Counted from the first letter of the stretch, positions 28,472 through 49,942 are shown. The stretch is DNA of 64,000 nt from an uncultured Planctomycetia bacterium (GCA_964489445.1 CAZAYU010000001.1:74717-138716); one strand, 5' to 3'. Translations and numbers: made by a program. The notes: generated from the letters alone by a model not told the origin.

Positions 28472-28481
28472 TTATAGACAG

Positions 28482-30540: not shown

Positions 30541-30553
30541 CTAAAAAATATAT

Positions 30554-31135: not shown

Positions 31136-31139
31136 CAAT

Positions 31140-32200: not shown

Positions 32201-32333
32201 AAAAGTGCGAATGTGAGCAAAAAATAAATATCATTCAGATAAAAAAGCATCTCCTATATGCGCATATGATTAACTCATTTAATTTGTTCGACTTATTTAA
32301 CATATTCACACATTTACGCATTAACTACTTAAC

Positions 32334-32342
32334 GGGGGGGGG
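32334..32342 (+). promoter_or_regulatory. Homopolymeric G9 tract overlapping the ribosome-binding region of the fibre-protein gene. Candidate slipped-strand phase-variation switch.
   Basis: 'AACGGGGGGGGGAAAAATG'. The nine Gs end 5 nt before the ATG at 32347. A G9 run is compositionally exceptional in this AT-rich window. Confidence 0.5.
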
Positions 32343-32346
32343 AAAA

Positions 32347-34894: not shown

Positions 34895-35723
34895 CCTCAA
34901 TGTCCAACACTTTTTCTAAAAGAGCTTTCTTGGTGTAGCGACGGCTCTTCTGGTTAAGAGTATCAGTAATTTCAATTTCAACAATACTTGCAGGAGAATC
35001 ATATGTTTCCAAAAGACGTTTTATAGTTTTTTCTGCCTCAAGAAACGGAGACAAGGAATCATCATTATTAGAAACTATTTCAATATTAAATAAAACCTGT
35101 AATGTTTTATTGCTGAATGCCGTCCGTAAATCATTTATCTTATATTCATCCTTTACATCCGGATCAATAAATTTACGGCGTAAGTTTTGTTTTGTAAGGT
35201 AAGAGATATGCTTTTCTAAAGTTATTTCTTCAGTAAACGGAATATGCTTTCCTTCCGTATCTCCTAGCGCTTTGGGGTTACGAAAGGAATCAAACACAAC
35301 TCTATGGTGGCGATCATCTAAAGAAATTTGTTTCATTTGAAATTTAATTCTATCCGGAATAAATTCAATTGTATAAACATCCGCTCCAATATCTTTGATA
35401 TCTGAAGCAACAAGACAATAAAATTCAGGCGGTTTGTCCATATTTAAAAACACTCTAATCAGAGAAAGAGAGATCCTGCGAATATCCTCTGCGGCCTTCT
35501 CATCCCATTTTCCTTCATCATCAACTATTTTATCAAAAGGTGCATAAATCCAAACAGTATTCCCGGCTGTCCATGTTTTTACGTCCAAACTAAACTCTTT
35601 CTTACATATATTTTGAATAACCTTAGCGATATCTTCGCGAGAGTAAGTGGTGGGGATAGAGCAAGAAACAAGAAAAAAGATTCCTAAGCTAATCAGTAGA
35701 TTCTTGAAAACGTCTCTTACCAT
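34887..35723 (-). CDS. Hypothetical lipoprotein
   Basis: Lipobox 'FFLVSC↓SIP' after an N-terminal signal sequence. No catalytic motif recognised. It lies downstream of, and is probably co-transcribed with, ftsH. Confidence 0.5.
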   Translation of the reverse strand: MVRDVFKNLLISLGIFFLVSCSIPTTYSREDIAKVIQNICKKEFSLDVKTWTAGNTVWIYAPFDKIVDDEGKWDEKAAEDIRRISLSLIRVFLNMDKPPEFYCLVASDIKDIGADVYTIEFIPDRIKFQMKQISLDDRHHRVVFDSFRNPKALGDTEGKHIPFTEEITLEKHISYLTKQNLRRKFIDPDVKDEYKINDLRTAFSNKTLQVLFNIEIVSNNDDSLSPFLEAEKTIKRLLETYDSPASIVEIEITDTLNQKSRRYTKKALLEKVLDIEAR

Positions 35724-37371
35724 ATTTTTTGAATATTTCTATAATTTCATCATATTCTAGCTCGCCTTTCCTAAGTAGCTCTTGAGCAAAATATTCCAAT
35801 AATTCTTTTTCTTCGGATAAAATTCCAGTTACATCTTCCAAGCACTGCCGCATAATAGATTGTGTATCCTCGTCGAGTTTTTCTCGAGTCTTTTCTGAAA
35901 TCCTTTCCGCCAATGTCTGTCCATGCCAAGCACTATCTAACGAATAAAAATTACCGATAATTCCAGACTTTCCCATGCCCCAGCGCCAAACCATTTGATG
36001 TGCCAAGCGTAAAGCGTACGAAAAATCACTATCCACACCTGAAGAAGTGGTGCCAAATTTTAAATTTTCAGCCGCATAGCTAGCAATACATGTTTTAATA
36101 TTTGCTAAAAACCAATCTCTTCTTTGAATGTGTGTTTCTTCTGGCGGGCGATGACCAACAAAGCCTAATGCTCCTTTTCGAGGAACAATCGAAGCCTTAA
36201 TAACATCATCCGTGGGGTGGGTAAGATAAGCAATTATTGCGTGCCCGGCTTCATGATAGGCAGTCCATTCTTTTTCTTTATCACTTAAAATAATTTGGCT
36301 TTTTAAACCAAAAACAACTCGATCGTAAGCTTCAGAGAGATCCTTGTAGGTAATCTTTACATTTTTGTTGCGTACCGTAATTAAAGAAGCCTCTCTAACC
36401 ATATTAGCAATATCCGCCGGCGAAAAACCAACCGCTCTTTTTGCTAGCATACCCGAATCCACTGAAGAATCAAATTGGGTTTTACTTAAGTAATAATCAA
36501 ACAATTTCTCCCGGTCATCTAAGCGAGGATTGCTTACATATATCTTACGATCAAATCTTCCGGCCCGCATTAATGCTGGATCTAAGTCACTATCGTTCAC
36601 ATTAGTCGCCGCAATCACTACGATATTGTTGTCTGTTTGTCTAAGGCCATCCATCTCCGTTAACAGCTGGTTCACGGTCGCATTATAACTCATGCCGCCA
36701 CCCATACCACTCACATTTACCCGTGGGCGAGCAATCGTATCTATCTCATCGATAAATACTAAAGCCCCACCATGAATATCAGCCAAAACTCTGGCTTCTT
36801 TAAATAAAGACTTAATTCGTGCTGCGCCAACTCCGACAAACATTCCAATAAACTCACTTCCTACAGTCGCTAAAAATGGTAAGCCAGTTTCTGTAGCAAT
36901 CGCTTTAGCTAAGTAAGTCTTCCCACAGCCAGGAGCGCCAACCATCAATATGCCCTTAATTATTCTTCCGCCTACCTGCTGGAGATGACTACGATCTTTG
37001 ATTAAGCTAATAACTTCCCAAACTTCTTTTTTCTCTGATTCCATACCCACAACATCAGACCACTTAATATCCACATCTTTAGCTTTAATCTTTTTTTGGC
37101 CCATCTTCGACATCCCACCACCAAACATAAACCAATAATGAAAACTCATGTAAATCGTCGCAAACACAAAGGCAGTAATTACGCTTAAGAACAACTGTAA
37201 AGGAATAGCGGCTAGAGTCATTTTCTTATAAAAAGACTCTAGACTCAAAAAATGTTTTGTCCCAATAACAAGAAGAAAAATCAAAGCGATAAGAAAGATG
37301 AGGCCGATAAGAATAGCTATCATCTTTAGCCAGTAGAGTTTAAGCAATATTTTTAATTTCCGTTTATCCAT
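35689..37371 (-). CDS. ftsH: ATP-dependent zinc metalloprotease FtsH (short form, 560 aa, with a minimal periplasmic loop)
   Basis: Walker A 'GAPGCGKTYLAKAIA', Walker B 'VFIDEIDTI', SRH 'ATNVNDSDLDPALMRAGRFDR', Zn site 'HEAGHAI'. Two N-terminal TM helices are separated by only ~20 residues. Confidence 0.85.
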   Translation of the reverse strand: MDKRKLKILLKLYWLKMIAILIGLIFLIALIFLLVIGTKHFLSLESFYKKMTLAAIPLQLFLSVITAFVFATIYMSFHYWFMFGGGMSKMGQKKIKAKDVDIKWSDVVGMESEKKEVWEVISLIKDRSHLQQVGGRIIKGILMVGAPGCGKTYLAKAIATETGLPFLATVGSEFIGMFVGVGAARIKSLFKEARVLADIHGGALVFIDEIDTIARPRVNVSGMGGGMSYNATVNQLLTEMDGLRQTDNNIVVIAATNVNDSDLDPALMRAGRFDRKIYVSNPRLDDREKLFDYYLSKTQFDSSVDSGMLAKRAVGFSPADIANMVREASLITVRNKNVKITYKDLSEAYDRVVFGLKSQIILSDKEKEWTAYHEAGHAIIAYLTHPTDDVIKASIVPRKGALGFVGHRPPEETHIQRRDWFLANIKTCIASYAAENLKFGTTSSGVDSDFSYALRLAHQMVWRWGMGKSGIIGNFYSLDSAWHGQTLAERISEKTREKLDEDTQSIMRQCLEDVTGILSEEKELLEYFAQELLRKGELEYDEIIEIFKKYGKRRFQESTD

Positions 37372-37510: not shown

Positions 37511-38503
37511 ATGAATTTCGAAAGTAGACAGCCAGATGAAATCATCCAAGATTTCAAAAATAAAATAAAACTACATTTGCCAAAGTCATTTTCCTTGCCA
37601 CTAATTGCTATCATCATTCTTGCTATCTTTATTCTTAAGGGTTCATTTTATACTATTCCACCTGATTCAGTGGGAGTGGTGTTACGTTTTGGAAAATTTG
37701 TTGGCACAACCAAACCCGGCTTACATTTCAAACTACCTTTAGGAATTGAAAAATTTACTCCGGTTAGAGTTGAAAAAATATACACTGATGAATTTGGATT
37801 TCGAACTCAGAGTGCCGGGGTTAAAACAATTTATAGCCAAAAATCATACGATGATGAATCATTAATGTTAACTTCGGATTTAAATGTTTTAGATTTAGAG
37901 TGGATTATTCAATATCGAATACGGAATCCTTTTGACGCGTTGTTTAACATTCGTGATTTATCAAAAACACTGAGAGATGTCTCTGAATCAGTAATGCGAG
38001 CGATTGTCGGAGACTACACGTTCAATGAAGTGCTCACATCTAAACGAATCGAAATAAACAATAAGGCCCAAGAAGAAATGCAGCAAATCCTTGATTTTTA
38101 TACTACTGGAATTCAAATTGTAAAAGTCAAGCTACAAGACGTAAATCCTCCAGATCCAGTTAAGTCTGCCTTCAATGAGGTAAACCAGGCAAAACAAGAA
38201 AAAGAAAAATTAATTAATCAAGCTTGGGAGATCTATAACCAAAAAATACCTCAAGCAAAAGGAGAAGCGCTAAAGAAAATTAAAGAAGCCGAAGGGTATG
38301 CTTTAGAAAAGGTTAATTGGGCCCAAGGAGACGCTGCAAGGTTTCTCTTACTTTGGGAAGAATACGCACAAGCAAAAGATGTAACAGCCAAAAGGTTGTA
38401 CTTAAATTACATGAATGAGGTTCTTCAAAAAGCAGGTAAAAAATATATTGTTGACACTAAAGAAAAAGGAATACTTCCTTTACTAAAATTACAAAATGAA
38501 TAA
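37511..38503 (+). CDS. hflK: FtsH protease modulator HflK (SPFH/band-7 domain)
   Basis: 'FYTIPPDSVGVVLRFGKFVGTTKPGLHFKLP' is the HflK N-terminal consensus. It has a single TM and an SPFH domain. Divergent from ftsH. Confidence 0.8.
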   Translation: MNFESRQPDEIIQDFKNKIKLHLPKSFSLPLIAIIILAIFILKGSFYTIPPDSVGVVLRFGKFVGTTKPGLHFKLPLGIEKFTPVRVEKIYTDEFGFRTQSAGVKTIYSQKSYDDESLMLTSDLNVLDLEWIIQYRIRNPFDALFNIRDLSKTLRDVSESVMRAIVGDYTFNEVLTSKRIEINNKAQEEMQQILDFYTTGIQIVKVKLQDVNPPDPVKSAFNEVNQAKQEKEKLINQAWEIYNQKIPQAKGEALKKIKEAEGYALEKVNWAQGDAARFLLLWEEYAQAKDVTAKRLYLNYMNEVLQKAGKKYIVDTKEKGILPLLKLQNE

Positions 38504-39473
38504 ATCAAATATCGCACTCATCACTGGAATTATTGTTGTAATCCTTATCCTAGCTGGAAATCCGTTTTACGTTCTTCCTGAGGGAACACAAGCGGTAATT
38601 ACCCAGTTTGGCGAACCTATCGGTGAATCTGTAACTAAAGCCGGCCTTCACTTAAAAATACCGTTCATCCAAAAAGTTAATTATTTCGAGAAAAGAATAC
38701 TTCCTTGGGACGGCGACCCTAATCAAATACCCACTAAAGACAAAAGATATATTTGGGTAGACACAACCGCTCGTTGGAAAATAATTGACCCGCTTAAATT
38801 TTTTAAAACAGTTTCTAACGAAAGAGGGGGACACGCTATATTAGACGGAATTATTGACGCTGCTGTACGTGATGCAATCACATCTCAAAAACTAATTGAA
38901 ATTGTCCGCTCTACAAATCGGATTATTGACAACCAAATAATCATTGAAAATGATGAAGAATTTATTGATGAGGGTGCGCTTGAAACAACTAAAACCGGCC
39001 GAGAAAAAATCAGAAAAGGAATTGTAGCCGGTGCACGAAAAGATTTAGGAGATCGCTACGGAATCGACCTCATTGACGTTCAAATCAAAAGAGTAAACTA
39101 TGTTGAAGAAGTCCAGCGGAAAGTATATGAAAGAATGATTGCTGAACGCCGAAGAGCAGCAGAAAAATACCGCTCTGAAGGAAGAGGAGTTCGAGCTGAT
39201 ATTGAAGGACGAACAGAAAAAGAATTAAAGGCTGTCCTCTCTGAAGCCTATAAAAAAGCTCAAAGCATCAAGGGAAAGGCCGACGCTACATCTACCAAGA
39301 TATACGCCGATGCCTACGGTAAAGACCTGGAATTTTATTCTTTCATGGAGACACTAAAAACATATGTCAAGACAATAGAGAAAAACACAACCATAATTTT
39401 AACTACAGAGGGCGAATATTTTAAATATTTAAACCAGCCATTTGAATCACTTCGATCCAAAGATCAAAACTAG
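38496..39473 (+). CDS. hflC: FtsH protease modulator HflC
   Basis: 'PFYVLPEGTQAVITQFGEP', 'YERMIAERRRAAEKYRSEGRG', 'FYSFMETLKTY'. Overlaps the hflK stop. Confidence 0.8.
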   Translation: MNKSNIALITGIIVVILILAGNPFYVLPEGTQAVITQFGEPIGESVTKAGLHLKIPFIQKVNYFEKRILPWDGDPNQIPTKDKRYIWVDTTARWKIIDPLKFFKTVSNERGGHAILDGIIDAAVRDAITSQKLIEIVRSTNRIIDNQIIIENDEEFIDEGALETTKTGREKIRKGIVAGARKDLGDRYGIDLIDVQIKRVNYVEEVQRKVYERMIAERRRAAEKYRSEGRGVRADIEGRTEKELKAVLSEAYKKAQSIKGKADATSTKIYADAYGKDLEFYSFMETLKTYVKTIEKNTTIILTTEGEYFKYLNQPFESLRSKDQN

Positions 39474-39560
39474 GTATAGAAATTACCTAACCATGTTGAG
39501 CGTTAAACAATCTAGAGTGTTTATACAAATAAGATTTAGAAATTCTTAAATTTAATACCC

Positions 39561-40412
39561 ATGGATTCTGCAATATTGCTGATATCTTGCCCCGATCAAA
39601 AAGGAATAACTGCTGAGGTAACCACTTTTGTTTATACGCATAACGGAAATATTGAACATGCCGACCAACATATTGACACCCATTCTAATACTTTTTTTAT
39701 GCGCATTGAATGGTCACTAAAAAACTTTGGCCTACCTAAAAATCAAATTTCCAAGAAACTTCTCTCCTTAACTAAAAAATTTAAAATGGACTGGTCTCTT
39801 TTTTTTACTGCTAAAATACCGCGAGTTGCTATATTTGCTTCGCAGTCTACACATTGTCTCTATGACTTGCTCTGGAAACAAAAACAGAATCAATTAAAAT
39901 GTGTAGTTTCACTGATTATCAGTAATCATCCTCAAATATCTTCAGTTGCTAAGAGCTTTAATGTAAAATTCGCTTATATCCCTAAAACTCTAAAAACTAA
40001 ATCAATCGCTGAAAAAAAAGAAATCGCTTTGTTACAAAAAGAAAAAATCGAGTTGATTGTTTTAGCTCGCTACGCACAAATTTTAACAAAACAGTTTGTT
40101 CAAGAGTTCCCTAATAAAATTATCAACATTCATCACTCATTTCTTCCGGCATTCATTGGCCAAAACCCCTATCAACAAGCCTATAGACGTGGGGTAAAAA
40201 TTATTGGAGCTACCAGCCATTATGTCACTGAAAAATTAGATGATGGACCAATTATCGAGCAAGACATCGTAAGAATAAGCCATCGCCGTTGTTTGGCTGA
40301 TTTAAAAATTGAAGGACAAGAATTAGAAAGAATAGTCTTAAGCCGGGCTGTCCGCTGGCATTTAGAACGAAAATTGCTTACCTACAAAAATAAAACAGTA
40401 GTCTTTGATTAA
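39561..40412 (+). CDS. purU: Formyltetrahydrofolate deformylase
   Basis: N-terminal ACT domain ('AILLISCPDQKGITAEVTTFV') plus a formyltransferase domain ('NIHHSFLPAFIG', 'GATSHYVTEKLDDGPII'). Confidence 0.85.
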   Translation: MDSAILLISCPDQKGITAEVTTFVYTHNGNIEHADQHIDTHSNTFFMRIEWSLKNFGLPKNQISKKLLSLTKKFKMDWSLFFTAKIPRVAIFASQSTHCLYDLLWKQKQNQLKCVVSLIISNHPQISSVAKSFNVKFAYIPKTLKTKSIAEKKEIALLQKEKIELIVLARYAQILTKQFVQEFPNKIINIHHSFLPAFIGQNPYQQAYRRGVKIIGATSHYVTEKLDDGPIIEQDIVRISHRRCLADLKIEGQELERIVLSRAVRWHLERKLLTYKNKTVVFD

Positions 40413-40478
40413 ACTGTTGCACAAAGCAGATATTCATGTTAGATTATCTGTCTGTAGTTCAATAAGGAGTAGCTATAA

Positions 40479-41771
40479 ATGAAAAAATGTACAAGTTTTC
40501 TCTTGAGTGTTGTGGGGCTGGTCGGTATTCTAACCGGTTGCACACCAAGCAACAAAACAAATGAGGACATTGTTGTTTGGCATTGGATGAACGACCGTCA
40601 AACCGCTTTTCTAAAACTTGCCGAACAATACAAAGAGGAAAACGGAATTAATGTAACTTTTAAGTTATTTTCCCCTCCCGATATCTATTCGCAGAAAGTA
40701 ATCGCGGCAGCCAGAGCTGGAAATTTACCAGATATTTTTGGTATCCTGGGAGAGAAAAAAACTATTTCTTCCTTTGTTAAAGCTGGACACATTTTAAACC
40801 TGACTCCTTATATACAAGAAAATAATCGCAAATGGCAAAATAGCTTTTACCCTCAGGCACTAAATGTAACTGAGTTTAAAAACAAAAATTCATACGAAGC
40901 ACCTGAAGGATTTTACGGAATCCCCATTGACATGACTGTGGTAGAGTTTTTATATAACAAAGAACTATTTAAAAAAGCCGGATTAGACCCTAATAAACCA
41001 CCAAGTAGTTTTGAACAATTTATTGACTATGCAAAAATAATAAAAGACAAGCTATCTGTTGACGGATTTACCTGCGGATGGGGCGAAGGGTGGTTAATCA
41101 ACGCCATTGCAATAGAATGGGCTATAAATTTAATGGGAGAAGAAAAGTTCTTGCAGACAATTAAAGGCGAAGTGCCCTACACTGACGCGCAATGGATAGA
41201 AGTATTCTCGTTATTTGAAAAAATAAAAAATGCAAACATTCTCTCTTCAAATATTACCACAATGATCAATAAAGAAGCAGAAGATTCTTTTTCTAAGAAC
41301 CAAGCTGTCTTTTCCTTCAATGGAAGCTGGTCAATCAACGTTTATAAGCAATTAGCACCTGATTTACAATACGCTTTCTTCCCATTACCAGAAATATCAA
41401 AAAAATTTCCGGTTAAAATATGGGGAGGAGCAGGATCATCGTTTATGGTTAACGCTCATTCAAAAAAGACAGAAAAAGTAGTTTCTTTCTTAAAATGGTT
41501 GACATCACCCAAACAACAAAAATTTCTTGTCAAAGAAACTAACAATCTCCCAGCAATTAAAGGCTGCACAAAAGAATTGTCTCCCGTCATGCTTTCGTTG
41601 GTGGATGATTTTGGAATACTTACCCACAGGAATATTTGGCCATACAATGAAAGCTCTCCAGTAATCGAAGTTACGATCAAAAGCTTACAGCAAATTATTA
41701 TGGGGTTAAAGACACCACAAGAGGCAGCTCTAGACATACAGTCCGTAAAGGAAAGGGAAATGCGTAAATGA
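40479..41771 (+). CDS. ABC transporter substrate-binding lipoprotein (family 1, carbohydrate type)
   Basis: Lipobox 'ILTGC↓TPS'. About 400 aa of periplasmic SBP with a 'W…GG…' sugar-SBP pattern. Followed by two MalFG-type permeases. Confidence 0.8.
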   Translation: MKKCTSFLLSVVGLVGILTGCTPSNKTNEDIVVWHWMNDRQTAFLKLAEQYKEENGINVTFKLFSPPDIYSQKVIAAARAGNLPDIFGILGEKKTISSFVKAGHILNLTPYIQENNRKWQNSFYPQALNVTEFKNKNSYEAPEGFYGIPIDMTVVEFLYNKELFKKAGLDPNKPPSSFEQFIDYAKIIKDKLSVDGFTCGWGEGWLINAIAIEWAINLMGEEKFLQTIKGEVPYTDAQWIEVFSLFEKIKNANILSSNITTMINKEAEDSFSKNQAVFSFNGSWSINVYKQLAPDLQYAFFPLPEISKKFPVKIWGGAGSSFMVNAHSKKTEKVVSFLKWLTSPKQQKFLVKETNNLPAIKGCTKELSPVMLSLVDDFGILTHRNIWPYNESSPVIEVTIKSLQQIIMGLKTPQEAALDIQSVKEREMRK

Positions 41772-42661
41772 ACGAATATACACTAAAAGACAAAAGTGTA
41801 AATTTTGCATTTATTTTACCAGCCTTCTTAATATTTGCCATATTCTATCTTTACCCTTTTTTCTACTCATTTATACTAAGCTTTCAACGCGGAGACGGAA
41901 TTTATTTATCTAAATTCATCGGGTTAGCTAATTTCAAGGAAGTTATTCTATATGATAAAGCCTGGTGGAAATCAATGTACAACGCAGGATTTATTACTTT
42001 CTGGGCGTTAACTTTTCAAAACATACTCGCATTTACATTAGCATTGGGAGTGGATAAAGCAATTAAAACCGGTAAAATTTATCGGGTAGTTTTTTTTATC
42101 CTTCCTGTGCTTTCCGAGATAATTATCGGTTTATTAATGAGAGAGCTACTTATCTCTAACCCGGGTATTCTTAACCAATGGTTGGAAAAGATAAATTTAG
42201 GCTTTATCGCCCAAGACTGGCTGGGGAAAAATAGCGTTTTGTTAACAACTGCTTTGGTCCATTGTTGGAAAGGATTTGGGTGGGCATTCATTATTTTTCT
42301 AGCTGGATTACAAACTGTCCCGGAACAATTATATGAAGCTTCAAAAATAGACGGAGCCAACCCTTGGCAAACTTTCTGCAATATTACTTTACCTCTTTTA
42401 ATGCCAGTTGTGTCTCTAGTTATAGTGCTTACACTTCTGGGAACAATGCAAGCTTTTGCCATGATTCTAGCTTTAACCAGAGGTGCAGGAGGCTTAACCG
42501 AGGTTCCGGTGATGAGAATATACAACCATCTGCGAGGAAGCCAGGTAGGATTAGCTTGCGCCGAAGGAATAGTTCTTGGAGCTATGCTTGTGGCAGTATC
42601 ATTCGGAATGTTTAATGTCTCTAAATGGATAAGGAGTCGTTGGGGTGTATTACCGCGCTAA
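41768..42661 (+). CDS. Carbohydrate ABC transporter permease (MalF/UgpA-like)
   Basis: 6 TM. EAA-loop region 'EASKIDGANPWQTFCNITLPLL'. Confidence 0.8.
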   Translation: MNEYTLKDKSVNFAFILPAFLIFAIFYLYPFFYSFILSFQRGDGIYLSKFIGLANFKEVILYDKAWWKSMYNAGFITFWALTFQNILAFTLALGVDKAIKTGKIYRVVFFILPVLSEIIIGLLMRELLISNPGILNQWLEKINLGFIAQDWLGKNSVLLTTALVHCWKGFGWAFIIFLAGLQTVPEQLYEASKIDGANPWQTFCNITLPLLMPVVSLVIVLTLLGTMQAFAMILALTRGAGGLTEVPVMRIYNHLRGSQVGLACAEGIVLGAMLVAVSFGMFNVSKWIRSRWGVLPR

Positions 42662-43481
42662 AAAAATTATATTTCTGGTTATTCTGCATACTTTGTTATT
42701 AAGCGTAGCGTTAAGCTGCGTCGGTCCGTTATTTTGGATGATTAACGCTTCATTTAAGACCGAAGGAGAGTTTCGCCAAGACCATGGATTAAAGGTTGCT
42801 TCTTCTCTTAATTGGAAAAATTATAAAAAAGCAATTACCGAAGGAAAATTGGGATTTTATTTTTTAAATAGTGTATTTTACACTTTTGTTACAGTATCTT
42901 TGATAGTTATCGTTTCCTCTTTAGCTGCTTTTGCTTTTTCCCGTTTAAATTTTCCCGGAAAAAATATTATATTCTTTATGTTCTTGACGGCGATGATGAT
43001 CCCGCTTCCTGCCGGATTTGTGCCAGTTTACATTCTTCTTAATAAACTTCATCTGGTAAATCGCACTGGGTATATTATGGCAATGTCCAATATGGGGCTT
43101 TCTTTGAGTATTTATCTTTTAAAGACTTTTTTTGACCAACTTCCTCGTGATCTTGAAGACGCGGCTAAAATCGACGGATGCAATAAATTACAAATTTGGT
43201 GGAACGTCGGTCTACCACTAGTTGCCCCAGCTCTTGCTGTTGTAATTATTTTTAACTCTCTTACCGTCTGGAATGAATTTGTTCTTGCTTCCTTGATGTT
43301 TACTGACAACAGCATGATGCCTCTTCAAGTCGGCTTAATGGATTTTTACAACCAAAATATCATCCAACACACTCTATTGATGGCCTCTTTGGCTATTGCC
43401 GCTGTACCGATCATTATGCTTTACTTACGAATGCAAAAACAAATAATTAAAGGCATAACTGCAGGAGCAATGGTCGGATAA
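42645..43481 (+). CDS. Carbohydrate ABC transporter permease (MalG/UgpE-like)
   Basis: 6 TM. EAA loop 'DLEDAAKIDGCNKLQIWWNVGLPL'. Confidence 0.8.
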   Translation: MYYRAKKIIFLVILHTLLLSVALSCVGPLFWMINASFKTEGEFRQDHGLKVASSLNWKNYKKAITEGKLGFYFLNSVFYTFVTVSLIVIVSSLAAFAFSRLNFPGKNIIFFMFLTAMMIPLPAGFVPVYILLNKLHLVNRTGYIMAMSNMGLSLSIYLLKTFFDQLPRDLEDAAKIDGCNKLQIWWNVGLPLVAPALAVVIIFNSLTVWNEFVLASLMFTDNSMMPLQVGLMDFYNQNIIQHTLLMASLAIAAVPIIMLYLRMQKQIIKGITAGAMVG

Positions 43482-43490
43482 ATAAAAAAA

Positions 43491-45821
43491 ATGAAAACAC
43501 AAAAAAATAAAAATAGAAATAGTGTGAGAAAAGCAACGATATTACTTATTTTTTGTTGGCTGACAATTGGAACGGTTTTTTCCGAAGATGCATCAGACTA
43601 TGTAAACAAAGGATGGGCCATCTTAGGAGAACGACAGTTTAGCGATGTTTATAAAATCACAGATTCATGTATTTCTGAATTTTCCGAGATTGCTAATGCA
43701 TCTGCAAAATCATTAAACAACTTCCCCTCAAAGGGAGAAGAAGATAAGTACAGGATAATGAACAATGTAGCAACTTGTTATTTCATCAAAGGAGAAGCGC
43801 TAATGCGCGATGGGAAAATAAACGAAGCCAAAGATGTATTTAAAAAGGTGATAGCTGCGTACCCTTTCGCTCAAAGCTTTGATCCTCGTGGATGGTATTG
43901 GTCGATCAAAGAAAAGTCAGAGATAACTTTAAATAAACTAGAAACCGGAGAAGTAAGGGAAGACAATGACACACTAGACAAAACAACAATCACTAAGGTA
44001 ACTCTTTATGATAAGGGAACAGAATTTCCGGTTAAATACTCTGAATACGGAAAATTTACTAATATAGGAACAGAAAATTATAAATATATAGTAGAGGACC
44101 CAATTAAACTATCTAAAGCTATTGGGGAAGGAATATACCCAAACACTTCTTCCATAAAATTTGATCCGGAATATATCAAATTAAAAAGAAAATTATTTAA
44201 GATTAATCACTGGGAAATACTAAACTCTCGTGACTTAAACACAGCTTTTTACAAATGGAATGTAGCTTCGGAACCTCCAGCCGTAAAACAATTTTATATC
44301 GCCGAGATTCTAGAGAAAAGCGGATTAATAAAACAGGCAATTAAAGCATACTATGCAATATTAGTTCATTTTCCTGATAGCTATAGCTGGACATATTGGC
44401 ATACACCGTGGTACGTCGGTAAGGCTTCCCTGTACCGGATAAAATATTTACTAAAAAAATACCCTAAACTAGGACTTAAATTAGAAAATGCAAAAATAAA
44501 GATTATCAATGGCTACGACAACAATGTCCGGAATGACAAATTTATTGTAAACCCTGGTATCTTAAAAAAAGTTTCTCTTAAAGATAAACTTGCCAGTGCT
44601 TACAATAATTTAACTTGCTCAAAGATGTGCAGTGATAGAAAAAATAAAACAAGGAAAATTAAGGAAACAGAAGGAAAATCTGTGAAGCTCGTCGAATACC
44701 AAAACGGAAACTGGCAGTTACTCGTTAATAATAAGCCTTTCATAATTAAAGGAATTACTTATGGTCCAACTCGTGTTGGAGAATCACCAGATGAAGGAAC
44801 TATGCAAAACTGGTCAACGCAAGATTTAAATAACAATGGCATAATTGACTCTCCATATGAAAGTTGGGTTGATGAAAATAAAAATAACGTAAAGGATGAA
44901 AATGAGAAAATTGTAGGTGATTTTTATCTTCTTAACGACATGGGGGTCAATACCTTACGTCTCTATCACCAACCATTTGAGTTAAATCAAAAAATTATTC
45001 GACAAATGCATGCAAAATATGGTATATATATAATAATAGGCGATTTTTTAGGAAAATACGCTATCGGAAGTAAAGCGGGCTGGGAAAAAGGAACAGATTA
45101 CGATAACCCCGAACATCAAAAAAATATGATAGAAAGCGTAAAAAAAATGGTTGAGGATTTTAAAGACGAACCTTACGTTTTAATGTGGCTTCTGGGAAAT
45201 GAAAATGTTTATGGATTGGGTTGCAACGCTGATAAAAAGCCAGAAAGTTTTTTTAAATTCGCCAACAAAGTTGCTTCCTTAATTAAAACTCTGGATCCAC
45301 AAAAAAGACCAGTTGCTATCTCCTCTGGAGATATTTTATACTTAGATATTTTTGCAAAAAATTGTCCGGACATCGACATATTCGGAACTAATGCATATCG
45401 AGGGCAATACGGCTTTTTAGATATCTGGGATGAAGTAAAAGAGGCTACAGGAAAACCAGCAATGCTTACCGAATACGGAGCCCCTTCTTACGCTAGAGGA
45501 TACACCCTGGAAGAAGCTGAAAAATATCAAGCCAATTATCATGAAGCTTGTTGGCAAGATATTGTCTGTAACTCTTCTGGCTATGGTGCAGGAAATGCTA
45601 TTGGCGGAATTGCATTTGAATGGGTTGATGAATGGTGGAAGGCCTATGAGCCTGCCCACCATGATAAAAAAGGATTATTTACTGGTCCTTTTTTAGATGG
45701 GTATATGCATGAGGAATGGCTAGGAGTGTGCAGTCAAGGGGAGGGAAACGAATCTCCTTACCTGCGCCAGCTTAAAGATTCTTATTTTACTTACAAACGG
45801 CTTTGGAACGAAAATGATTAA
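43491..45821 (+). CDS. Secreted TPR-like N-terminal domain fused to a glycoside-hydrolase family-2-type TIM-barrel domain (putative glycosidase)
   Basis: N-terminal signal/TM. The C-terminal half has 'NTLRLYHQP' (cf. GH2 NxxRxSHYP), 'MWLLGNENVYG' (cf. LacZ WSLGNESG acid/base), 'MLTEYGAPSY' (cf. nucleophile xEYAHAMG) and 'FEWVDEWWK'. Confidence 0.5.
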   Translation: MKTQKNKNRNSVRKATILLIFCWLTIGTVFSEDASDYVNKGWAILGERQFSDVYKITDSCISEFSEIANASAKSLNNFPSKGEEDKYRIMNNVATCYFIKGEALMRDGKINEAKDVFKKVIAAYPFAQSFDPRGWYWSIKEKSEITLNKLETGEVREDNDTLDKTTITKVTLYDKGTEFPVKYSEYGKFTNIGTENYKYIVEDPIKLSKAIGEGIYPNTSSIKFDPEYIKLKRKLFKINHWEILNSRDLNTAFYKWNVASEPPAVKQFYIAEILEKSGLIKQAIKAYYAILVHFPDSYSWTYWHTPWYVGKASLYRIKYLLKKYPKLGLKLENAKIKIINGYDNNVRNDKFIVNPGILKKVSLKDKLASAYNNLTCSKMCSDRKNKTRKIKETEGKSVKLVEYQNGNWQLLVNNKPFIIKGITYGPTRVGESPDEGTMQNWSTQDLNNNGIIDSPYESWVDENKNNVKDENEKIVGDFYLLNDMGVNTLRLYHQPFELNQKIIRQMHAKYGIYIIIGDFLGKYAIGSKAGWEKGTDYDNPEHQKNMIESVKKMVEDFKDEPYVLMWLLGNENVYGLGCNADKKPESFFKFANKVASLIKTLDPQKRPVAISSGDILYLDIFAKNCPDIDIFGTNAYRGQYGFLDIWDEVKEATGKPAMLTEYGAPSYARGYTLEEAEKYQANYHEACWQDIVCNSSGYGAGNAIGGIAFEWVDEWWKAYEPAHHDKKGLFTGPFLDGYMHEEWLGVCSQGEGNESPYLRQLKDSYFTYKRLWNEND

Positions 45822-45844
45822 CAGTATAAATAAAGGAGGTTTAC

Positions 45845-47038
45845 ATGCGTAAGCTAAGCGGCTTAACTATCACTGTGTGTGCATTTGCATTTCTCTTGGT
45901 TAGCGGAATTTCTTTCTCCGCTGTATGCCAGGATGTTGAAGACTTTTATGTCTATTCTGATAAAAATTCTCCTTCGAACCATTTTATTCCTAGTGGATGG
46001 ATGGGTGATAATAATGACCTTCAATTTAACGACCAGGCAACCAACGAAGCATCTTCCGGGGCAACTTCTATAAAGATAGTCTACACTGCTAAAAAATCAC
46101 AAAATAATGGTTGGGCCGGAATTTATTGGCAATCTTCTCAAAATAACTGGGGTGGAAGGGATAGCGGTTTTGACTTGAGCAACTACAATGAGTTAACTTT
46201 TATGGCTAAAGGTGCCGAAGGCGGAGAAGTAATCACTAAAATAAAAGTAGGTGGAATTACCTCCAACGCAGTTACCGGCGAACCAGTAGCATTTCCCGAC
46301 ACTGTCAATGTAGAAATTGACCCTATAAAACTAACTAACGACTGGCAAGAATATTCGATTAATCTAGCCGACAAAGACCTAACCAATGTTAATGGAGGAT
46401 TAGCTATCATTTTTAATGCAGATCAGGCAAACGGAAAGCAAACAGTTTACCTAGATGATATTAAATACACCTACATTGCTGATCTAAAAAAGAAAGAGTC
46501 TGCGGTAAATTTCCCTTTTTACGTATACGCAGACAGCGGATCCCTAGACAATCATTTTACCCCTAGCGGATGGATGCCAACAACTGCGGCTAGAGATTTA
46601 CGAATGGATACTAATTGGAAGAATTACCCATTTAGTGGAGATACCTGCATGAGAGTTGAATACAAGAATGACTCTGGAACACGTTGGGCCGGAATTTATT
46701 GGCAGAATCCAGCAAACAACTGGGGAACTATCCCTGGCGTAGGATTCGATCTTCAAGGAGCAGACAAAATTACCTTTTGGGCGCGTGGCGACAAGGGTGG
46801 AGAAATAATCACTGAATTTAAAATTGGTGGCATTGCTAGCGGTGAACATATTGATTCTGACTCTGCGAGCATCGGCCCTGTTCAATTAACAAAAGAATGG
46901 ACAAAATACGAAATTGATTTACGTGGACGCGATCTTTCCTATATTATTGGAGGATTTTGTTGGGCTACTAACATTGATGTAAACGACCCTGAGGGAATAG
47001 TATTCTACTTAGACGAGCTTAAATACGTAAAAGAATAG
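45845..47038 (+). CDS. Secreted protein made of two tandem ~170-aa β-sandwich carbohydrate-binding-like repeats
   Basis: Signal peptide. Repeat 1 'NHFIPSGWMGD…WAGIYWQSSQNNWGG…GFDLSNYNELTFMAKGAEGGEVITKIKVGGI'. Repeat 2 'NHFTPSGWMPT…WAGIYWQNPANNWGT…GFDLQGADKITFWARGDKGGEIITEFKIGGI'. Confidence 0.45.
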   Translation: MRKLSGLTITVCAFAFLLVSGISFSAVCQDVEDFYVYSDKNSPSNHFIPSGWMGDNNDLQFNDQATNEASSGATSIKIVYTAKKSQNNGWAGIYWQSSQNNWGGRDSGFDLSNYNELTFMAKGAEGGEVITKIKVGGITSNAVTGEPVAFPDTVNVEIDPIKLTNDWQEYSINLADKDLTNVNGGLAIIFNADQANGKQTVYLDDIKYTYIADLKKKESAVNFPFYVYADSGSLDNHFTPSGWMPTTAARDLRMDTNWKNYPFSGDTCMRVEYKNDSGTRWAGIYWQNPANNWGTIPGVGFDLQGADKITFWARGDKGGEIITEFKIGGIASGEHIDSDSASIGPVQLTKEWTKYEIDLRGRDLSYIIGGFCWATNIDVNDPEGIVFYLDELKYVKE

Positions 47039-47082
47039 TTGTAGAAAAATAATCTTTTACATCACAAAAAGCACATAAATAA

Positions 47083-48414
47083 ATGGGACTATCTAAACAC
47101 AAAAAGAACAAACTGTTAAGCTTTATCTTATTGGTAATTTTCTTAATCATCTTAGGAATAGTGCTGTTCTGGATGGGAAAAACTAGATGTGATGGCAATC
47201 TATTGAAAAACAACAAAAAAATTATAGCAAATAATTTACTTACTGCTCAAAACCAACAAATAACACCTCCTGCTGGGCCAATAGTCATAAAAGCTACCTC
47301 TGAGGGTGGATACACTTTGTATGTAGGGAAAGAACCATTCCTCGCCAAAGGAGTCGGATACAACCCCACCCCAATCGGCAAAGGATACACCTATGATTTT
47401 TTTCAAGATGAAAGTAAACCTTGGTTGGTCGATGGGAAGCTAATGCAAAAAGCAGGAATCAATTGTGTTCGGATTTACACAACGAGTAAAGATCTAGACA
47501 AAGTAAAATTATTTATCCGAGAAATGTACGAAAACTTCGGTATTTACACCATTGTTAGTGATTGGTTAGGATTATGGAATTACCCAAGAGCTAACTACGC
47601 TGACAAAAATTTTCAAGAAAGCGTTAAACAAAAAATGCTCACCATCGTCGAGGCATTAAAAGATGAAAAAGGACTCCTGATGTGGATGTTGGGGAATGAA
47701 AATAACTACACATTTTCCGGGAAAATTGGTTTCTGGACTTCTCCGGAAATTGAAAAGATCGAGCAACCTGCCGAAAAACAAGTTAAAAGAGCAGAAATTT
47801 ACTATTCCTTCGTAAACGAGATTGCTTCTAGTATTAAAGCAATCGACAAATCACATCCAGTCGCCTTAGGAAACGGAGAAGCTAACTTTTTAGGAGTAGC
47901 TGCAAATACCTGCAATGACATTGATATTCTGGCAATAATCATCTACCGTGGAAAAACATTCGGTAATTTGTTTAACACCATCAGGAATACATTCAATAAG
48001 CCAATTATTCTTTCTGAATTCGGGTGTGAATCTTTCGATGCATATAAGAAAGAAGAAAACCAAGATATTCAATCAGATTTTTTGCTTGCTCAATGGAAGG
48101 AACTATATGCGAATACTACTCTCAGCGGAAACAAGGCTGGAAATTGTATTGGGGGATGTTCTTTCGAGTGGACTGATGAATGGTGGAAGCATAATGAAGG
48201 ATATGCTGATGATTGGAAAATTCACAATCAAGAAGCAGGATGGTCACATGGTGCATATTTCTTTGATATTCGCTCAGACAATAACCTAAATATGAATGAA
48301 GAATGGTTTGGCATCATCAGCTTAAGCAAGGAAATGGAAAACGGAATAAACAAGCGCACACCTAAAAAATCATTCTATACCTTAAAAAACTTCTTCTCTA
48401 ATCTTCAATATTAA
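47083..48414 (+). CDS. GH2-type TIM-barrel glycosidase-like protein, a membrane-anchored paralogue of the 43491-45821 C-terminal domain
   Basis: N-terminal TM. 'GINCVRIYTTSKD', 'MWMLGNENNY', 'ILSEFGCESF', 'FEWTDEWWKHNEG'. The same motif order as the upstream paralogue. Confidence 0.5.
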   Translation: MGLSKHKKNKLLSFILLVIFLIILGIVLFWMGKTRCDGNLLKNNKKIIANNLLTAQNQQITPPAGPIVIKATSEGGYTLYVGKEPFLAKGVGYNPTPIGKGYTYDFFQDESKPWLVDGKLMQKAGINCVRIYTTSKDLDKVKLFIREMYENFGIYTIVSDWLGLWNYPRANYADKNFQESVKQKMLTIVEALKDEKGLLMWMLGNENNYTFSGKIGFWTSPEIEKIEQPAEKQVKRAEIYYSFVNEIASSIKAIDKSHPVALGNGEANFLGVAANTCNDIDILAIIIYRGKTFGNLFNTIRNTFNKPIILSEFGCESFDAYKKEENQDIQSDFLLAQWKELYANTTLSGNKAGNCIGGCSFEWTDEWWKHNEGYADDWKIHNQEAGWSHGAYFFDIRSDNNLNMNEEWFGIISLSKEMENGINKRTPKKSFYTLKNFFSNLQY

Positions 48415-48512
48415 CAAGATTCATTTATTTGCCTAGTATTATACATCTGGCATAGTAGTAAATAATATACTACTTGGAAAATTATTAAAAGCATTATCAA
48501 TGTAGTGATAAT

Positions 48513-49145
48513 ATGAAAAATTACTGGTACCTAGCATTAGTACTATCCCTCTCTATCCATAGCCTGTTATTTATTAAGTACGGCATTTCTTTAAATGAGA
48601 TTCTCAAAAAAGAAGAAACAACTAACTCAAGAACAACAAAGATTGAGCTCACACCCGAGACAATGAAAAAAATAACAAAAAACAAACCTTTGAACGTGCA
48701 AGACATAAAACCACTTCCGTATCTGGAAAATTTTGTTGATGATCTAAACAAGAAAAATAAACCATCCTTGCTTAAAAAACTACAGATATCCCAGAAAAAT
48801 ATAAAGGATGTATTCTTTTCAGAAACATCACCGAGCAACCACGAACTGGAAAAGAATGACGCATACATGAATTATTACCGGTTAATAAGAGAAAAAATAA
48901 AAGCTAACGCTTACCATAACTACAATAGCAAAAGAGAAGGAGAGGTCCTCATCAATTTCATGGTCTTAGCCAGCGGATTACTCCAAGATATTGCTTTTGA
49001 CCAGAAATCAGTTGCTAGTGATGTTTTGAAAAAAATCGCCTTAAAAAGCGTTGGGGAATCTTCCCCGTTTCCAGAATTTCCAGAAGAACTAAAACAATAT
49101 TCTTATCTGCGATTTAACATATCAATATACTTTAAAAACGACTAG
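48513..49145 (+). CDS. TonB-family C-terminal-domain protein (putative energy transducer)
   Basis: An N-terminal TM ('YLALVLSLSIHSLLFI'), a linker, then a C-terminal TonB-like β-domain 'GEVLINFMVLASGLLQDIAFDQKSVASDVLKKIALKSV…FPEFP'. Confidence 0.45.
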   Translation: MKNYWYLALVLSLSIHSLLFIKYGISLNEILKKEETTNSRTTKIELTPETMKKITKNKPLNVQDIKPLPYLENFVDDLNKKNKPSLLKKLQISQKNIKDVFFSETSPSNHELEKNDAYMNYYRLIREKIKANAYHNYNSKREGEVLINFMVLASGLLQDIAFDQKSVASDVLKKIALKSVGESSPFPEFPEELKQYSYLRFNISIYFKND

Positions 49146-49150
49146 TTCTG

Positions 49151-49942
49151 ATGAATACCGAGCAACCACAGCTAAACACATCCAAATCTTTTAATGAAAA
49201 AACATCGGTTAAATTAAATGTAGCAATCAACAAGGGCTCATCAAGGATTTCCGCCAAAGCAATACTCCTGCCTTATAGTGAATGCCCCTCATCTCACGAA
49301 CTAATAACGACAACTATTGGAAAAATCATCCCTAGACAAAAAATAATAATCTTAAGCCCTAAATACGCAAATATTCATTCAGCTAATTATTTTCTGTCAA
49401 ACCGCAAACAATTATCAATACCCCTCAACAAAGCAAAGCTTGACGCTACTCTTACCAAGGCGATACTAAGTAATAAAAAATATCCCTTATCTGGCAGCCA
49501 AGAGTATATTTCTAAAAAAATGTTATCTACCTTGCAACATTTTTTTAAAAAATCACAGTTAACACTAATTAAATGCCAGAACTGCTCTTTAGGCACATAC
49601 CGAGAAATATCAACTCAAATGTTTGAAGCTTTAAAACATACACATAACGACACCTTGCTGATCGCTTTAGCCGACTTAGCCACATCTAATTCGGAAGCTA
49701 CTGTCAGAAAAATAGACAGACTGCTGATTGATGCAATTATAAATTTAAACGATGACTATATTATTGAAAAGATAAAAACCGAAAAGCTTCAAATGCTCGG
49801 AGAAGCTTCGCTTCTTATCTTGCTTAATTACTTAAAAATGACTGGCATCAAAAAAACACGAGTTAACGGATATAAGGTTAGAACAATAGCTGACAAGAAA
49901 CACCCTTTTATGTCCGGACACGCTGGAATCATTTTCCAATAA
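49151..49942 (+). CDS. Hypothetical protein, possibly MEMO1 / AmmeMemoRadiSam-system protein B-like
   Basis: The C-terminal 'MSGHAGIIFQ' resembles the MEMO family C-terminal 'GYAAIAF'. Otherwise weak. 263 aa. Confidence 0.35.
   Translation: MNTEQPQLNTSKSFNEKTSVKLNVAINKGSSRISAKAILLPYSECPSSHELITTTIGKIIPRQKIIILSPKYANIHSANYFLSNRKQLSIPLNKAKLDATLTKAILSNKKYPLSGSQEYISKKMLSTLQHFFKKSQLTLIKCQNCSLGTYREISTQMFEALKHTHNDTLLIALADLATSNSEATVRKIDRLLIDAIINLNDDYIIEKIKTEKLQMLGEASLLILLNYLKMTGIKKTRVNGYKVRTIADKKHPFMSGHAGIIFQ

Follow-up and report, generated by a model that had tools for sequence, protein, structure and literature searches.

Organization of the locus

The DNA analysed is a stretch of 64 kb (hereafter the window). 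In it, six close-set, co-directional open reading frames occupy positions 40479-48414 of the + strand and are separated by spacers of -4, -17, 9, 23 and 44 nt; coordinates and lengths agree with those given in an earlier note on this DNA. The first gene (40479..41771) encodes a 430-aa substrate-binding lipoprotein of a CUT1-type sugar ABC importer, as judged from matches to Pfam SBP_bac_1 (PF01547; 2e-32, 113.7 bits against a cut-off of 26) and SBP_bac_8 (PF13416; 1e-30, 107.7 bits). Its lipobox reads LTGC, and the cysteine (C21) is invariant in 65 orthologues. The nearest solved relatives of the substrate-binding protein (SBP) bind oligosaccharides; they include the chitin oligosaccharide binder NagB2 (2e-22), binders of manno-, arabino- and xylo-oligosaccharides, and the Lin1841 protein, which we take to bind beta-1,2-gluco-oligosaccharides.

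The SBP gene is followed, with an overlap of 4 nt, by the gene for a MalF/UgpA-like permease (297 aa, 41768..42661) and then by that for a MalG-like permease (278 aa, 42645..43481). Both permeases match BPD_transp_1 (PF00528; 1.4e-14 and 1.1e-16, or 54.7 and 61.5 bits, respectively; cut-off 26.4). The NCBIfam matches, to UgpA and MalF for the former and to MalG (8e-31) for the latter, were under the cut-offs of those models. By its SBP and its pair of MalF/G-type permeases, the transporter part of the locus is a predicted CUT1-type importer, in line with the sugar ABC importer proposed in the earlier note.

The same note had found no ABC ATPase at the locus, and this held for the whole window, where no open reading frame combines a Walker A motif with LSGGQ; the sole Walker A motif belongs to an FtsH-like protease. 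Nor was an ABC ATPase found in 1.09 Mb of sequence from 80 related loci. The lack of an ATPase both here and in the related loci is consistent with an ATPase that is shared and encoded elsewhere. Shared, unlinked ATPases of the MsiK/MsmK type serve CUT1-family sugar importers in Actinobacteria and Firmicutes. As in those systems, an SBP and two permeases lie in a glycan-utilisation locus without an ATPase in cis, but the host here belongs to the PVC group and is diderm.

The three remaining genes encode a secreted 776-aa protein with a TPR-containing N-domain and a TIM barrel (43491..45821), a secreted, non-catalytic 397-aa protein with two beta-sandwich modules of CBM30/CBM11-like type (45845..47038), and a 443-aa paralogue of the 776-aa barrel that carries a membrane anchor (47083..48414). 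Genes for glycolysis, PFOR and Rnf fermentation are present in the same window.

Conservation in Omnitrophota

The window is from Candidatus Omnitrophota, and the related loci likewise came from genomes of Omnitrophota, two of which are assembled to chromosome level (1.28 and 1.52 Mb). Genes for the SBP and the permeases precede the gene for the 776-aa protein in all 62 loci where this could be tested, and the genes for the CBM-like protein and the membrane-anchored barrel follow it in 53 of 55. The six-gene order is thus a conserved feature of the phylum Omnitrophota, which the earlier note had not reported. Identity across the phylum is 50-85% for the cluster, and the MalG-like permease gene is the most conserved (median 68% identity in related loci). 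The locus adjoins housekeeping genes (for an FtsH-like protease, HflK/C and PurU) even in genomes of 1.3-1.5 Mb. In 9/62 loci an MFS_2/GPH sugar symporter gene lies between the permease genes and that of the 776-aa protein, and a variant of the locus carries extra ROK and LacI-family genes.

The barrels belong to clan GH-A

The 776-aa protein has a signal-peptide-like N-terminus, a conserved N-domain of ~350 aa (~32-385) that contains TPRs, and a barrel (~390-776) into which an EF-hand-like double loop is inserted at 445-469. Pfam reports Glyco_hydro_2_C (1.2e-16), Glyco_hydro_72 (8e-9) and TPR_6, in line with the TPR-like N-domain and C-terminal TIM barrel claimed earlier. In the 443-aa protein one strongly hydrophobic N-terminal helix (~11-31; Kyte-Doolittle 3.4) precedes the barrel, which matches Glyco_hydro_72 (1.7e-8), Glyco_hydro_cc (2e-6, above the cut-off) and Glyco_hydro_2_C (3.5e-5). 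Glyco_hydro_cc is the Pfam model for GH128 (PMC9830802). The two barrels share 29% identity over ~400 columns (E 6e-47), which makes them paralogues, as the earlier note had it.

The motifs read from the sequence in that note are nearly all where they were said to be: LGNEN at 568 in the 776-aa and 203 in the 443-aa protein, TEYG/SEFG at 660 and 311, and FEW(V/T)DEWWK at 709 and 361. NxxRxYH occurs as described in the 776-aa protein, but its histidine is missing from the 443-aa paralogue, which reads NCVRIYT. Each protein has a (beta/alpha)8 barrel with an Asn-Glu acid/base pair after beta4 (N570-E571 and N205-E206, respectively) and a nucleophile Glu after beta7 (E661 and E312), the arrangement that defines clan GH-A. 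None of these residues varies among 49 homologues of the 776-aa protein or among 59 of the 443-aa protein, and in the latter set R130, H258 and Y288 are invariant as well. The Asn-Glu pair and the nucleophile Glu also line up with the catalytic residues that experiments have assigned in GH158 (PMC13195107, PMC7157763). On this sequence evidence we place both barrels in clan GH-A with both catalytic glutamates kept, and the two extracytoplasmic glycanases are probably active.

Placement of the barrels among glycoside hydrolase families

For both barrels the best PDB match by sequence was GH158 (phmmer 3.4e-12 for the 776-aa and 6e-3 for the 443-aa protein), and the best Foldseek matches were to GH158 as well. 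The GH158 enzymes, namely BuGH158 from the 1,3-glucan utilisation locus of Bacteroides uniformis and GH158(Pro), are endo-beta-1,3-glucanases; however, the sequence match spans just ~130-180 residues, at 17-27% identity. In GH158 enzymes the barrel is followed by a C-terminal Ig-like domain of eight strands that packs against it (PMC7157763, PMC13195107). Such a domain is absent from both paralogues: the model of the 776-aa protein has only ~70 residues after beta8, forming two short strands and one helix, and the 443-aa protein, aligned to its C-terminus, ends similarly. The 776-aa protein further differs from GH158 in its 350-aa TPR-containing N-domain and EF-hand-like insert, and the 443-aa paralogue in its membrane anchor. 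Uptake here is by an SBP and an ABC system, and not by SusC/D as in the GH158 comparison system.

Automatic annotation treats these genes as ordinary GH2 genes, for a beta-glucuronidase or beta-galactosidase; public names are 'beta-glucuronidase' (JGI) and 'GH2 TIM barrel-domain containing protein' (NCBI). Glyco_hydro_2_C (PF02836), which covers the TIM barrel of beta-glucuronidase and LacZ, is indeed the top Pfam match of the 776-aa protein and exceeds its cut-off in both paralogues (61.2 and 23.5 bits against 21), and the 'NEN' and nucleophile motifs match. With the profile of the barrel family, GH2 glucuronidases score 1e-10. However, GH158 does equally well or better in sequence (1.4e-11 with the same profile) and in fold, and the 443-aa paralogue matches GH72 and GH128 better than Glyco_hydro_2_C. 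GH2 enzymes have sugar-binding and Ig-like domains in front of the barrel, and these are lacking here, as the earlier note had observed: neither PF02837 nor PF00703 was matched by either paralogue at E up to 0.1, and what precedes the barrel is a helical, TPR-like region in the 776-aa protein and a TM helix in the 443-aa protein. Every NCBIfam GH2 equivalog model stayed far under its cut-off (20-31 bits, for instance 30 bits, against 544-1284). An ordinary GH2 identity is therefore very improbable.

The barrels are about equidistant from GH158 and GH2 and do not fit cleanly into a characterised family. The characterised families nearest to them, GH158, GH157, GH72 and GH128, have activity on beta-1,3-glucan in common. 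For GH128 this activity is well known; for GH72 it is given by the titles of the PDB entries for Gas2 and Gel4, and for GH157 and GH158 by published work (PMC7157763, PMC13195107, PMC10229575). Sequence searches extended to E 1 matched no chain of GH157, the family of the Labilibaculum antarcticum endo-beta-1,3-glucanase (9fz9), and the Pfam scores for GH72, the family of the beta-1,3-glucanosyltransferases Gas2 and Gel4, are modest (35 bits). GH72 enzymes are known from fungi, where they are GPI-anchored.

The tandem CBM-like protein

The 397-aa protein has a signal-peptide-like N-terminus and consists of two modules (~32-212 and ~222-397) that are 41% identical (E 1e-41), so that its description as a pair of internal repeats stands. 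NHF(I/T)PSGWM, WAGIYWQ, NNWG, GFDL, GGE(V/I)IT and K(V/I)GGI each occur twice, also as described. With 20.5 bits, the protein stays below the cut-off of the CBM30 model PF21582 (27 bits), which some homologues pass (37.8 and 31.4 bits); no PDB sequence matched the module even at E 10. The module has a beta-sandwich fold of CBM30/11 type, and we assign it as a distant, predicted binding module of the CBM30/CBM11 type. Unlike the beta-glucan-binding CBM30 and CBM11 of Clostridium thermocellum cellulases, it forms a stand-alone secreted tandem pair rather than an appendage of an enzyme, and has a conserved motif set of its own (NHFxPSGWM, WAGIYWQ, NNWG).

At least six other proteins carry the module as an insertion within a barrel of the same family as those of the 776- and 443-aa proteins (phmmer 1e-12 to 1e-22). 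These fusions, which join the two in one chain, indicate that barrel and module are functionally coupled. Of 45 multidomain proteins with the module, 14 also contain a GH17-like domain, although the matches span only the last ~80 positions of the Pfam model. Its fusion to GH-A barrels and GH17-like domains hints indirectly that the module may bind beta-glucan chains. The module is also found in very large multidomain surface-type proteins.

A candidate beta-glucan uptake locus

The earlier reading of these genes as a glycan-uptake locus, with a sugar ABC importer that lacks an ATPase, two GH-A paralogues and a tandem CBM-like protein, is strengthened by the gene order conserved in 80 related loci, by the symporter, ROK and LacI-family additions, and by the barrel-module fusions. 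The symporter in 9/62 loci, the variant with ROK and LacI genes, and the oligosaccharide-binding relatives of the SBP all point to a catabolic context. A role in the catabolic capture, cleavage and import of a glycan is thus likely. The narrower identification of the glycan as beta-1,3-glucan or mixed-linkage beta-glucan is a more tentative proposal, for which we would put the chances at somewhat under even. The hints of beta-1,3-glucan, from the GH158, GH72 and GH128 matches of the barrels and from the GH17-like companions of the module, agree with each other, but several come from one and the same barrel and are not independent; CBM30 and CBM11 are known for beta-1,4 and mixed-linkage glucans, not for pure beta-1,3-glucan.

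As a whole, the locus is best explained, with somewhat better than even confidence, as an operon-like locus of Omnitrophota for the extracytoplasmic capture and cleavage of beta-glucan and the import of its oligosaccharides. A beta-linked glucan, most likely beta-1,3- or mixed-linkage, would be bound outside the cytoplasm, presumably in the periplasm, by the secreted tandem CBM30/11-like protein. It would be cut by the two putative retaining GH-A enzymes, which may divide the labour between them, one being soluble with its TPR-containing N-domain and the other anchored in the cytoplasmic membrane next to the transporter. The released oligosaccharides would flow inwards through the lipoprotein SBP to the MalF/G-type permease pair, which may be powered by an ABC ATPase encoded elsewhere in the genome, and the imported sugar could then feed the glycolysis, PFOR and Rnf fermentation genes of the window. 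The window and the cluster within it encode neither a cytoplasmic beta-glucosidase or phosphorylase nor an outer-membrane uptake component.

This absence and some further features count against the explanation. Conservation at 50-85% identity in a fixed housekeeping neighbourhood is unusual for a nutrient locus, and transglycosylation, in place of hydrolysis, is common among GH72 and bacterial GH17 enzymes. The barrels could, instead, be transglycosylases or trimming enzymes that remodel the cell's own periplasmic or surface beta-glucan, with the TPR domain as an assembly scaffold, the CBM protein as a polymer chaperone and the ABC system recycling fragments. The phylum-wide gene order among housekeeping genes, even in genomes of 1.3-1.5 Mb, would suit such a role, as would the match of both paralogues to GH72, a glucanosyltransferase family, the GH17-like domains of several module carriers, and the TPRs, which are typical of the periplasmic polysaccharide-assembly proteins PelB, AlgK and BcsC. 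However, the loci examined contain no glycosyltransferase or synthase in the cluster or within 8 kb, type I ABC systems with an SBP are importers, the SBP resembles binders of nutrient oligosaccharides, and the symporter, ROK and LacI-type genes of variant loci are marks of catabolism. We consider envelope remodelling improbable.

It is also possible, although again improbable, that the targets of the secreted CBM protein and of the enzymes are surface or periplasmic glycans of the prey or host cells to which Omnitrophota, as possible epibionts or predators, attach, and that the ABC system imports the products. Omnitrophota are reported to be ultra-small with host-dependent or predatory traits (PMC10066038), and a 2026 preprint describes proteins with a 'GH2' catalytic domain that recur beside giant-protein loci and are read as extracellular and cell-wall-targeting (10.64898/2026.06.07.730766). 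Conservation of the locus across the phylum, and the occurrence of the module in very large surface-type proteins, would fit. However, no link emerged between the locus and machinery for attachment or secretion; its neighbours in the window, as in both chromosome-level assemblies, are housekeeping genes, and not pilus, T2SS or giant genes. In addition, one enzyme is anchored in the cytoplasmic membrane of the cell that makes it, and that cell also carries the SBP as a lipoprotein. Harvesting from attached cells would, moreover, be a special case of beta-glucan capture and import, with the same mechanism and another source of glycan.

Implications for Omnitrophota

Omnitrophota are widespread and nearly all uncultured, and their food sources have been argued from genomes alone. 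Published surveys mention just 'sugar transport' and 'secreted glycoside hydrolases', and one of them states that its genomes lack the enzymes that begin the breakdown of polysaccharides (PMC8542988, PMC10066038). The locus described here, kept even in genomes of 1.3-1.5 Mb, combines an importer of oligosaccharides with two extracytoplasmic glycanases that are probably active and a dedicated predicted binding protein.

In the most far-reaching reading, the barrels would form a new family of clan GH-A and the repeat a new CBM family related to CBM30, and together with the orphan ABC importer they would make up a signature nutritional apparatus of Omnitrophota: the main sugar supply of ultra-small, host-dependent bacteria, possibly drawn from the glucans of the cells to which they attach. 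We regard this as unlikely; if true, it would give a concrete, testable handle on the diet of these bacteria. Should the substrate turn out to be an ordinary laminarin-type glucan, the result would be a useful annotation and no surprise. Confirmation of the substrate would identify a principal source of carbon for Omnitrophota and would probably extend the catalogue by one CBM family and by a family or subfamily of GH-A. It would also put right the names 'beta-glucuronidase' and 'hypothetical protein' that these genes now bear in hundreds of genomes.

Layout and importer of the cluster

The six plus-strand open reading frames of the earlier note were recovered within 40479-48414 at exactly its coordinates and lengths. 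Their packing is operon-like: the gene for the solute-binding protein (SBP) and the first permease gene overlap by 4 nt, the two permease genes overlap by 17 nt, the remaining spacers are 9, 23 and 44 nt in that order, and the cluster is flanked by 66 nt ahead of its first gene and 98 nt past its last. Searches of 39400-49300 for promoter-like sites (30 found, 31.6 expected from shuffles) and terminator-like sites (8 found, 7.3 expected) were uninformative on operon boundaries, and Rfam and tRNA scans gave no match inside the six-gene locus. An anti-phage defence, mobile element or prophage origin of the locus was rejected, as such domains are absent and the composition is flat (GC 0.355-0.385, inside the window range of 0.32-0.40).

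The same note had read the first three genes as an SBP lipoprotein and two MalFG-like permeases without an ABC ATPase, and this reading holds. The 430-aa protein is a family-1 SBP (Pfam PF01547, 2e-32) with a lipobox, the cysteine of which is invariant across 65 orthologues, and the 297-aa and 278-aa proteins are both binding-protein-dependent permeases (Pfam PF00528). The closest solved relatives of the SBP are all oligosaccharide binders (specific for chito-, manno-, arabino- or xylo-oligosaccharides or, in the case of the Lin1841 protein, beta-1,2-gluco-oligosaccharides). No open reading frame in the 64-kb window carries both Walker A and LSGGQ motifs, and no ABC ATPase was found across 80 related loci (1.09 Mb in total). 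No curated NCBIfam family covers the 397-aa protein, and NCBIfam models match the other cluster proteins below threshold only.

Barrel enzymes

The 776-aa protein matches Glyco_hydro_2_C (1.2e-16), Glyco_hydro_72 (8e-9) and TPR_6 in Pfam, and the 443-aa protein matches Glyco_hydro_72 (1.7e-8), Glyco_hydro_cc (2e-6) and Glyco_hydro_2_C (3.5e-5). The barrel of the former and the latter are paralogues (29% identity, E 6e-47), as had been proposed from the sequence alone; the motifs quoted in that proposal occur in both barrels and in both copies of the 397-aa repeat, except that the His of 'NxxRxYH' is missing from the 443-aa protein. The N-terminus of the 776-aa protein, like that of the 397-aa protein, is signal-peptide-like, and that of the 443-aa protein is a single, strongly hydrophobic helix. 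For the 776-aa protein, AF2 predicts a helical N-domain with short beta elements (residues ~32-385), a short beta stretch and a (beta/alpha)8 barrel (pLDDT 85, pTM 0.83).

When the PDB was searched with phmmer, GH158 was the top match for both the 776-aa protein (3.4e-12) and the 443-aa protein (6e-3). Foldseek ranked GH158 first, followed by GH2 glucuronidases and then GH72 (Gel4, Gas2). A profile built from 49 homologues matched GH158 (1.4e-11) no more closely than it matched the GH2 barrel (GH2 glucuronidases, 1e-10). Both paralogues lack the GH2 accessory domains, which had already been noted, and curated GH2 models also fail; the model of the 776-aa protein, in turn, lacks the C-terminal Ig-like domain of GH158. 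The barrels thus appear to be clean members of no characterised family. E571 and E661 of the 776-aa protein align (HMMER) to Glu143 and Glu229 of GH158(Pro), reported as acid/base and nucleophile, respectively (PMC13195107), and the Asn ahead of E571 matches a conserved Asn of BuGH158 (PMC7157763). Since these residues align with those of GH158, and since the Asn and both Glu never vary among 49 homologues of the 776-aa protein or among 59 orthologues of the 443-aa protein, both paralogues appear to be competent for catalysis with a retaining mechanism.

The N-domain of the 776-aa protein (window 43584-44645) is conserved to the same degree as the catalytic barrel. Its invariant aromatics are W137, Y183, Y197, Y199, W241, W256, Y302, W303, W307 and Y308, and in its repeated unit an 'AQxWDxxGW(Y/F)W' hairpin comes after a pair of TPR helices. 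By sequence, the N-domain found no homologue in the PDB, only a chance-level TPR match; it may serve as a glycan platform or in protein docking. Past the first barrel strand lies an insert, DLNNNGIIDSPYESWVDENKNNVKD (residues 445-469, window 44823-44897), made of two EF-hand/dockerin-like DxNxNxxxD loops, which suggests Ca2+ binding. Homologues keep the insert, with D445, W459 and D461 invariant and N447, N449, D453, N463 and N466 nearly so; the 443-aa paralogue is without it.

Tandem-module protein

The only Pfam match of the 397-aa protein is CBM30, below threshold (5e-4), and by sequence it matches nothing in the PDB even at E 10. Its two halves are 41% identical (E 1e-41), in agreement with the two internal repeats described for it earlier. 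When cluster representatives were searched exhaustively, the repeated module turned up in 2,558 clusters, with up to eight copies per protein and a largest carrier of 2,917 aa. The few named sources among the distant carriers include Omnitrophota, one Methanophagales archaeon and one Altiarchaeales archaeon. Partner domains in 45 multidomain carriers are GH17-like (14/45), beta-helix (4/45) and GH2_C (3/45); the GH17-like matches are partial, spanning only the last ~80 positions of the Pfam model, and for that reason we down-weighted GH17 co-occurrence as substrate evidence.

In six module-carrying proteins (P0296, P0303, P0351, P0369, P0383 and P0334) the module interrupts a barrel that belongs to the family of the window enzymes, with barrel segments flanking it on either side (phmmer 1e-12 to 1e-22). 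These fusions tie the stand-alone tandem protein to the barrel enzymes, and by this association the two very probably handle the same glycan. The insertion is an unusual domain architecture. P0296 comes from Omnitrophota, whereas for P0303 the CHU_C type IX secretion signal that it bears suggests an origin in Bacteroidota.

Conservation and variants of the locus

The 776-aa and 397-aa proteins have hundreds to thousands of homologues; identity among the best 120 for each protein is 56-87%, and any named source is Candidatus Omnitrophota (formerly Omnitrophica or OP3). When one genome per GTDB species was scanned with pattern seeds, 403 stretches proved to encode a relative, and 80 loci were kept, all of them on Omnitrophota MAGs, SAGs or chromosomes, with depositor labels that include 'uncultured Planctomycetia' or 'bacterium'. 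As a 2026 preprint counts slightly more than 700 species of the phylum for that GTDB release (10.64898/2026.06.07.730766), a large part of Omnitrophota appears to have the locus, the count of 403 being bounded by exact-pattern seeds and MAG incompleteness, and stretches possibly not equalling one per genome.

We mapped the window proteins onto the 80 loci by tblastn. The SBP-permease-permease order upstream of the 776-aa gene was found in all 62 loci whose contig reaches far enough, and the tandem-module protein followed by the membrane-anchored barrel in 53 of 55 loci downstream of it. Median identity for all six proteins is 56-68%. The housekeeping genes before the cluster are also common to the window and two chromosome-level assemblies (1.28 and 1.52 Mb): RseC-like, formyltransferase, FtsH-like protease, HflK/HflC-like band-7 and PurU.

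In nine loci (L047, L050, L056, L063, L066, L068, L071, L073 and L075) the second permease gene is separated from the 776-aa gene by an extra ~500-aa gene (for example, L050:6458-7987). It is an MFS_2/GPH-family sugar:cation symporter (Pfam PF13347, 1.5e-58), as read and Pfam-scanned in L050 and L071 and inferred from gap size in the other seven; an ABC system and a secondary transporter thus coexist in one cluster. A hidden ATPase in this gap was rejected, as both genes read there encode the sugar symporter. Two loci of the 55, L068 and L073, are without the membrane-anchored paralogue. In L073, from which the replacement gene content is taken, there are an additional protein that contains the TPR-plus-aromatic-hairpin unit of the N-domain twice (L073:10229-11368), a lipobox-bearing single-module binding protein, a ROK-family protein and a LacI-family regulator. 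Such additions are typical of sugar catabolic loci.

Neighbouring genes

Upstream of the cluster, the gene of a short (560 aa) FtsH-like AAA/M41 protease and that of a 278-aa lipoprotein-like product without a Pfam family overlap (34887-37371, minus strand) and are divergent from an HflK/HflC-like band-7 pair (37511-39473, plus strand). In many Omnitrophota loci this block accompanies the cluster (single genes in 18-31 of 80). A plus-strand gene for a 545-aa protein (32266-33903) encodes a C-terminal Peptidase_S74 domain (7.7e-16), an intramolecular chaperone of endosialidase and tail-spike proteins usually met in phage tail fibres; the gene lies in a conserved chromosomal neighbourhood and is present on the longer contig of locus L001 too.

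Adjoining the 3' end of the cluster, a 210-aa protein (48513-49145, plus strand) carries a single hydrophobic segment at its N-terminus and weakly matches the TonB C-terminal domain (3.7e-4, just under the cut-off), and a link to outer-membrane uptake is possible. It lies downstream of the cluster in 14 of 80 loci; the chromosome-level loci L003 and L004 carry a PagL-like outer-membrane protein instead. Two further plus-strand genes, for proteins of 193 aa (54353-54934) and 528 aa (60416-62002), gave no Pfam match at E up to 1e-5. Outside the locus, the window also encodes a tmRNA with the tag ATPYVAAPAYALS and tRNAs for Met, Val, Thr and Gly, four in all (6627-6986, 8198-8416, 25845-25919 and 59524-59594).

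Proposed function and substrate

We consider glycan capture, cleavage and import the likely function of the locus. GH128 is a family of beta-1,3-glucanases. GH72 enzymes are beta-1,3-glucanosyltransferases (PDB entry titles, Gas2 and Gel4), GH158 and GH157 are endo-beta-1,3-glucanase families (PMC7157763, PMC13195107, PMC10229575), and Pfam Glyco_hydro_cc is the GH128 model (PMC9830802). As these four families are the nearest neighbours of the barrels, they point to beta-1,3-glucan; the four routes are not fully independent and the indication is suggestive, and in fold both the GH5 mannanases and the enzymes of GH2 lie nearly as close. Our assignment of beta-1,3-glucan or mixed-linkage beta-glucan as the substrate is accordingly tentative, at somewhat less than an even chance. 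The secreted tandem-module protein would capture the beta-glucan, the soluble TPR-barrel enzyme would cut it once bound, and the membrane-anchored paralogue would cut it further, in the periplasm or at the cell surface. The SBP would then catch the oligosaccharides for import via the permeases, powered by a presumably shared ATPase encoded elsewhere.

Remodelling of a self-made envelope glucan would account for the unusual conservation of the locus and for its GH72/GH17 flavour, but it is unlikely given the importer in the cluster, the accessory genes of catabolic type and the lack of any synthase in the cluster or within 8 kb of it in the loci examined. Harvesting of a host or prey glycan, which would use the same mechanism on another glycan source, seems equally improbable. 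The database label of the barrels, 'beta-glucuronidase', is poorly supported and very unlikely to be correct.

The cluster lies in a window that also encodes two phosphofructokinases (14634-15587 and 55118-56143), an aldolase, a 1201-aa single-chain pyruvate:ferredoxin oxidoreductase (1211-4816) and an Rnf-type complex (27134-31949); no cytoplasmic glycosidase or phosphorylase was found in its 64 kb. This gene content fits a sugar-fermenting lifestyle, as described for most Gorgyraia and Velamenicoccia (PMC10066038).

We found no description of this locus in the literature on Omnitrophota and Velamenicoccus archaeovorus. One survey of Omnitrophota reports that enzymes for initial polysaccharide depolymerisation are absent from its genomes (PMC8542988), and a 2026 preprint mentions 'GH2' proteins near giant genes with no further analysis (10.64898/2026.06.07.730766). 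As a kind of system, ABC-type glycan-utilisation loci that include extracytoplasmic GH-A enzymes and a CBM protein are well known. What is new is a barrel lineage between GH158 and GH2 with its own TPR-containing N-domain and EF-hand-like insert, a CBM30-like module family and its stand-alone tandem arrangement, and the strict conservation of the locus across a whole candidate phylum.
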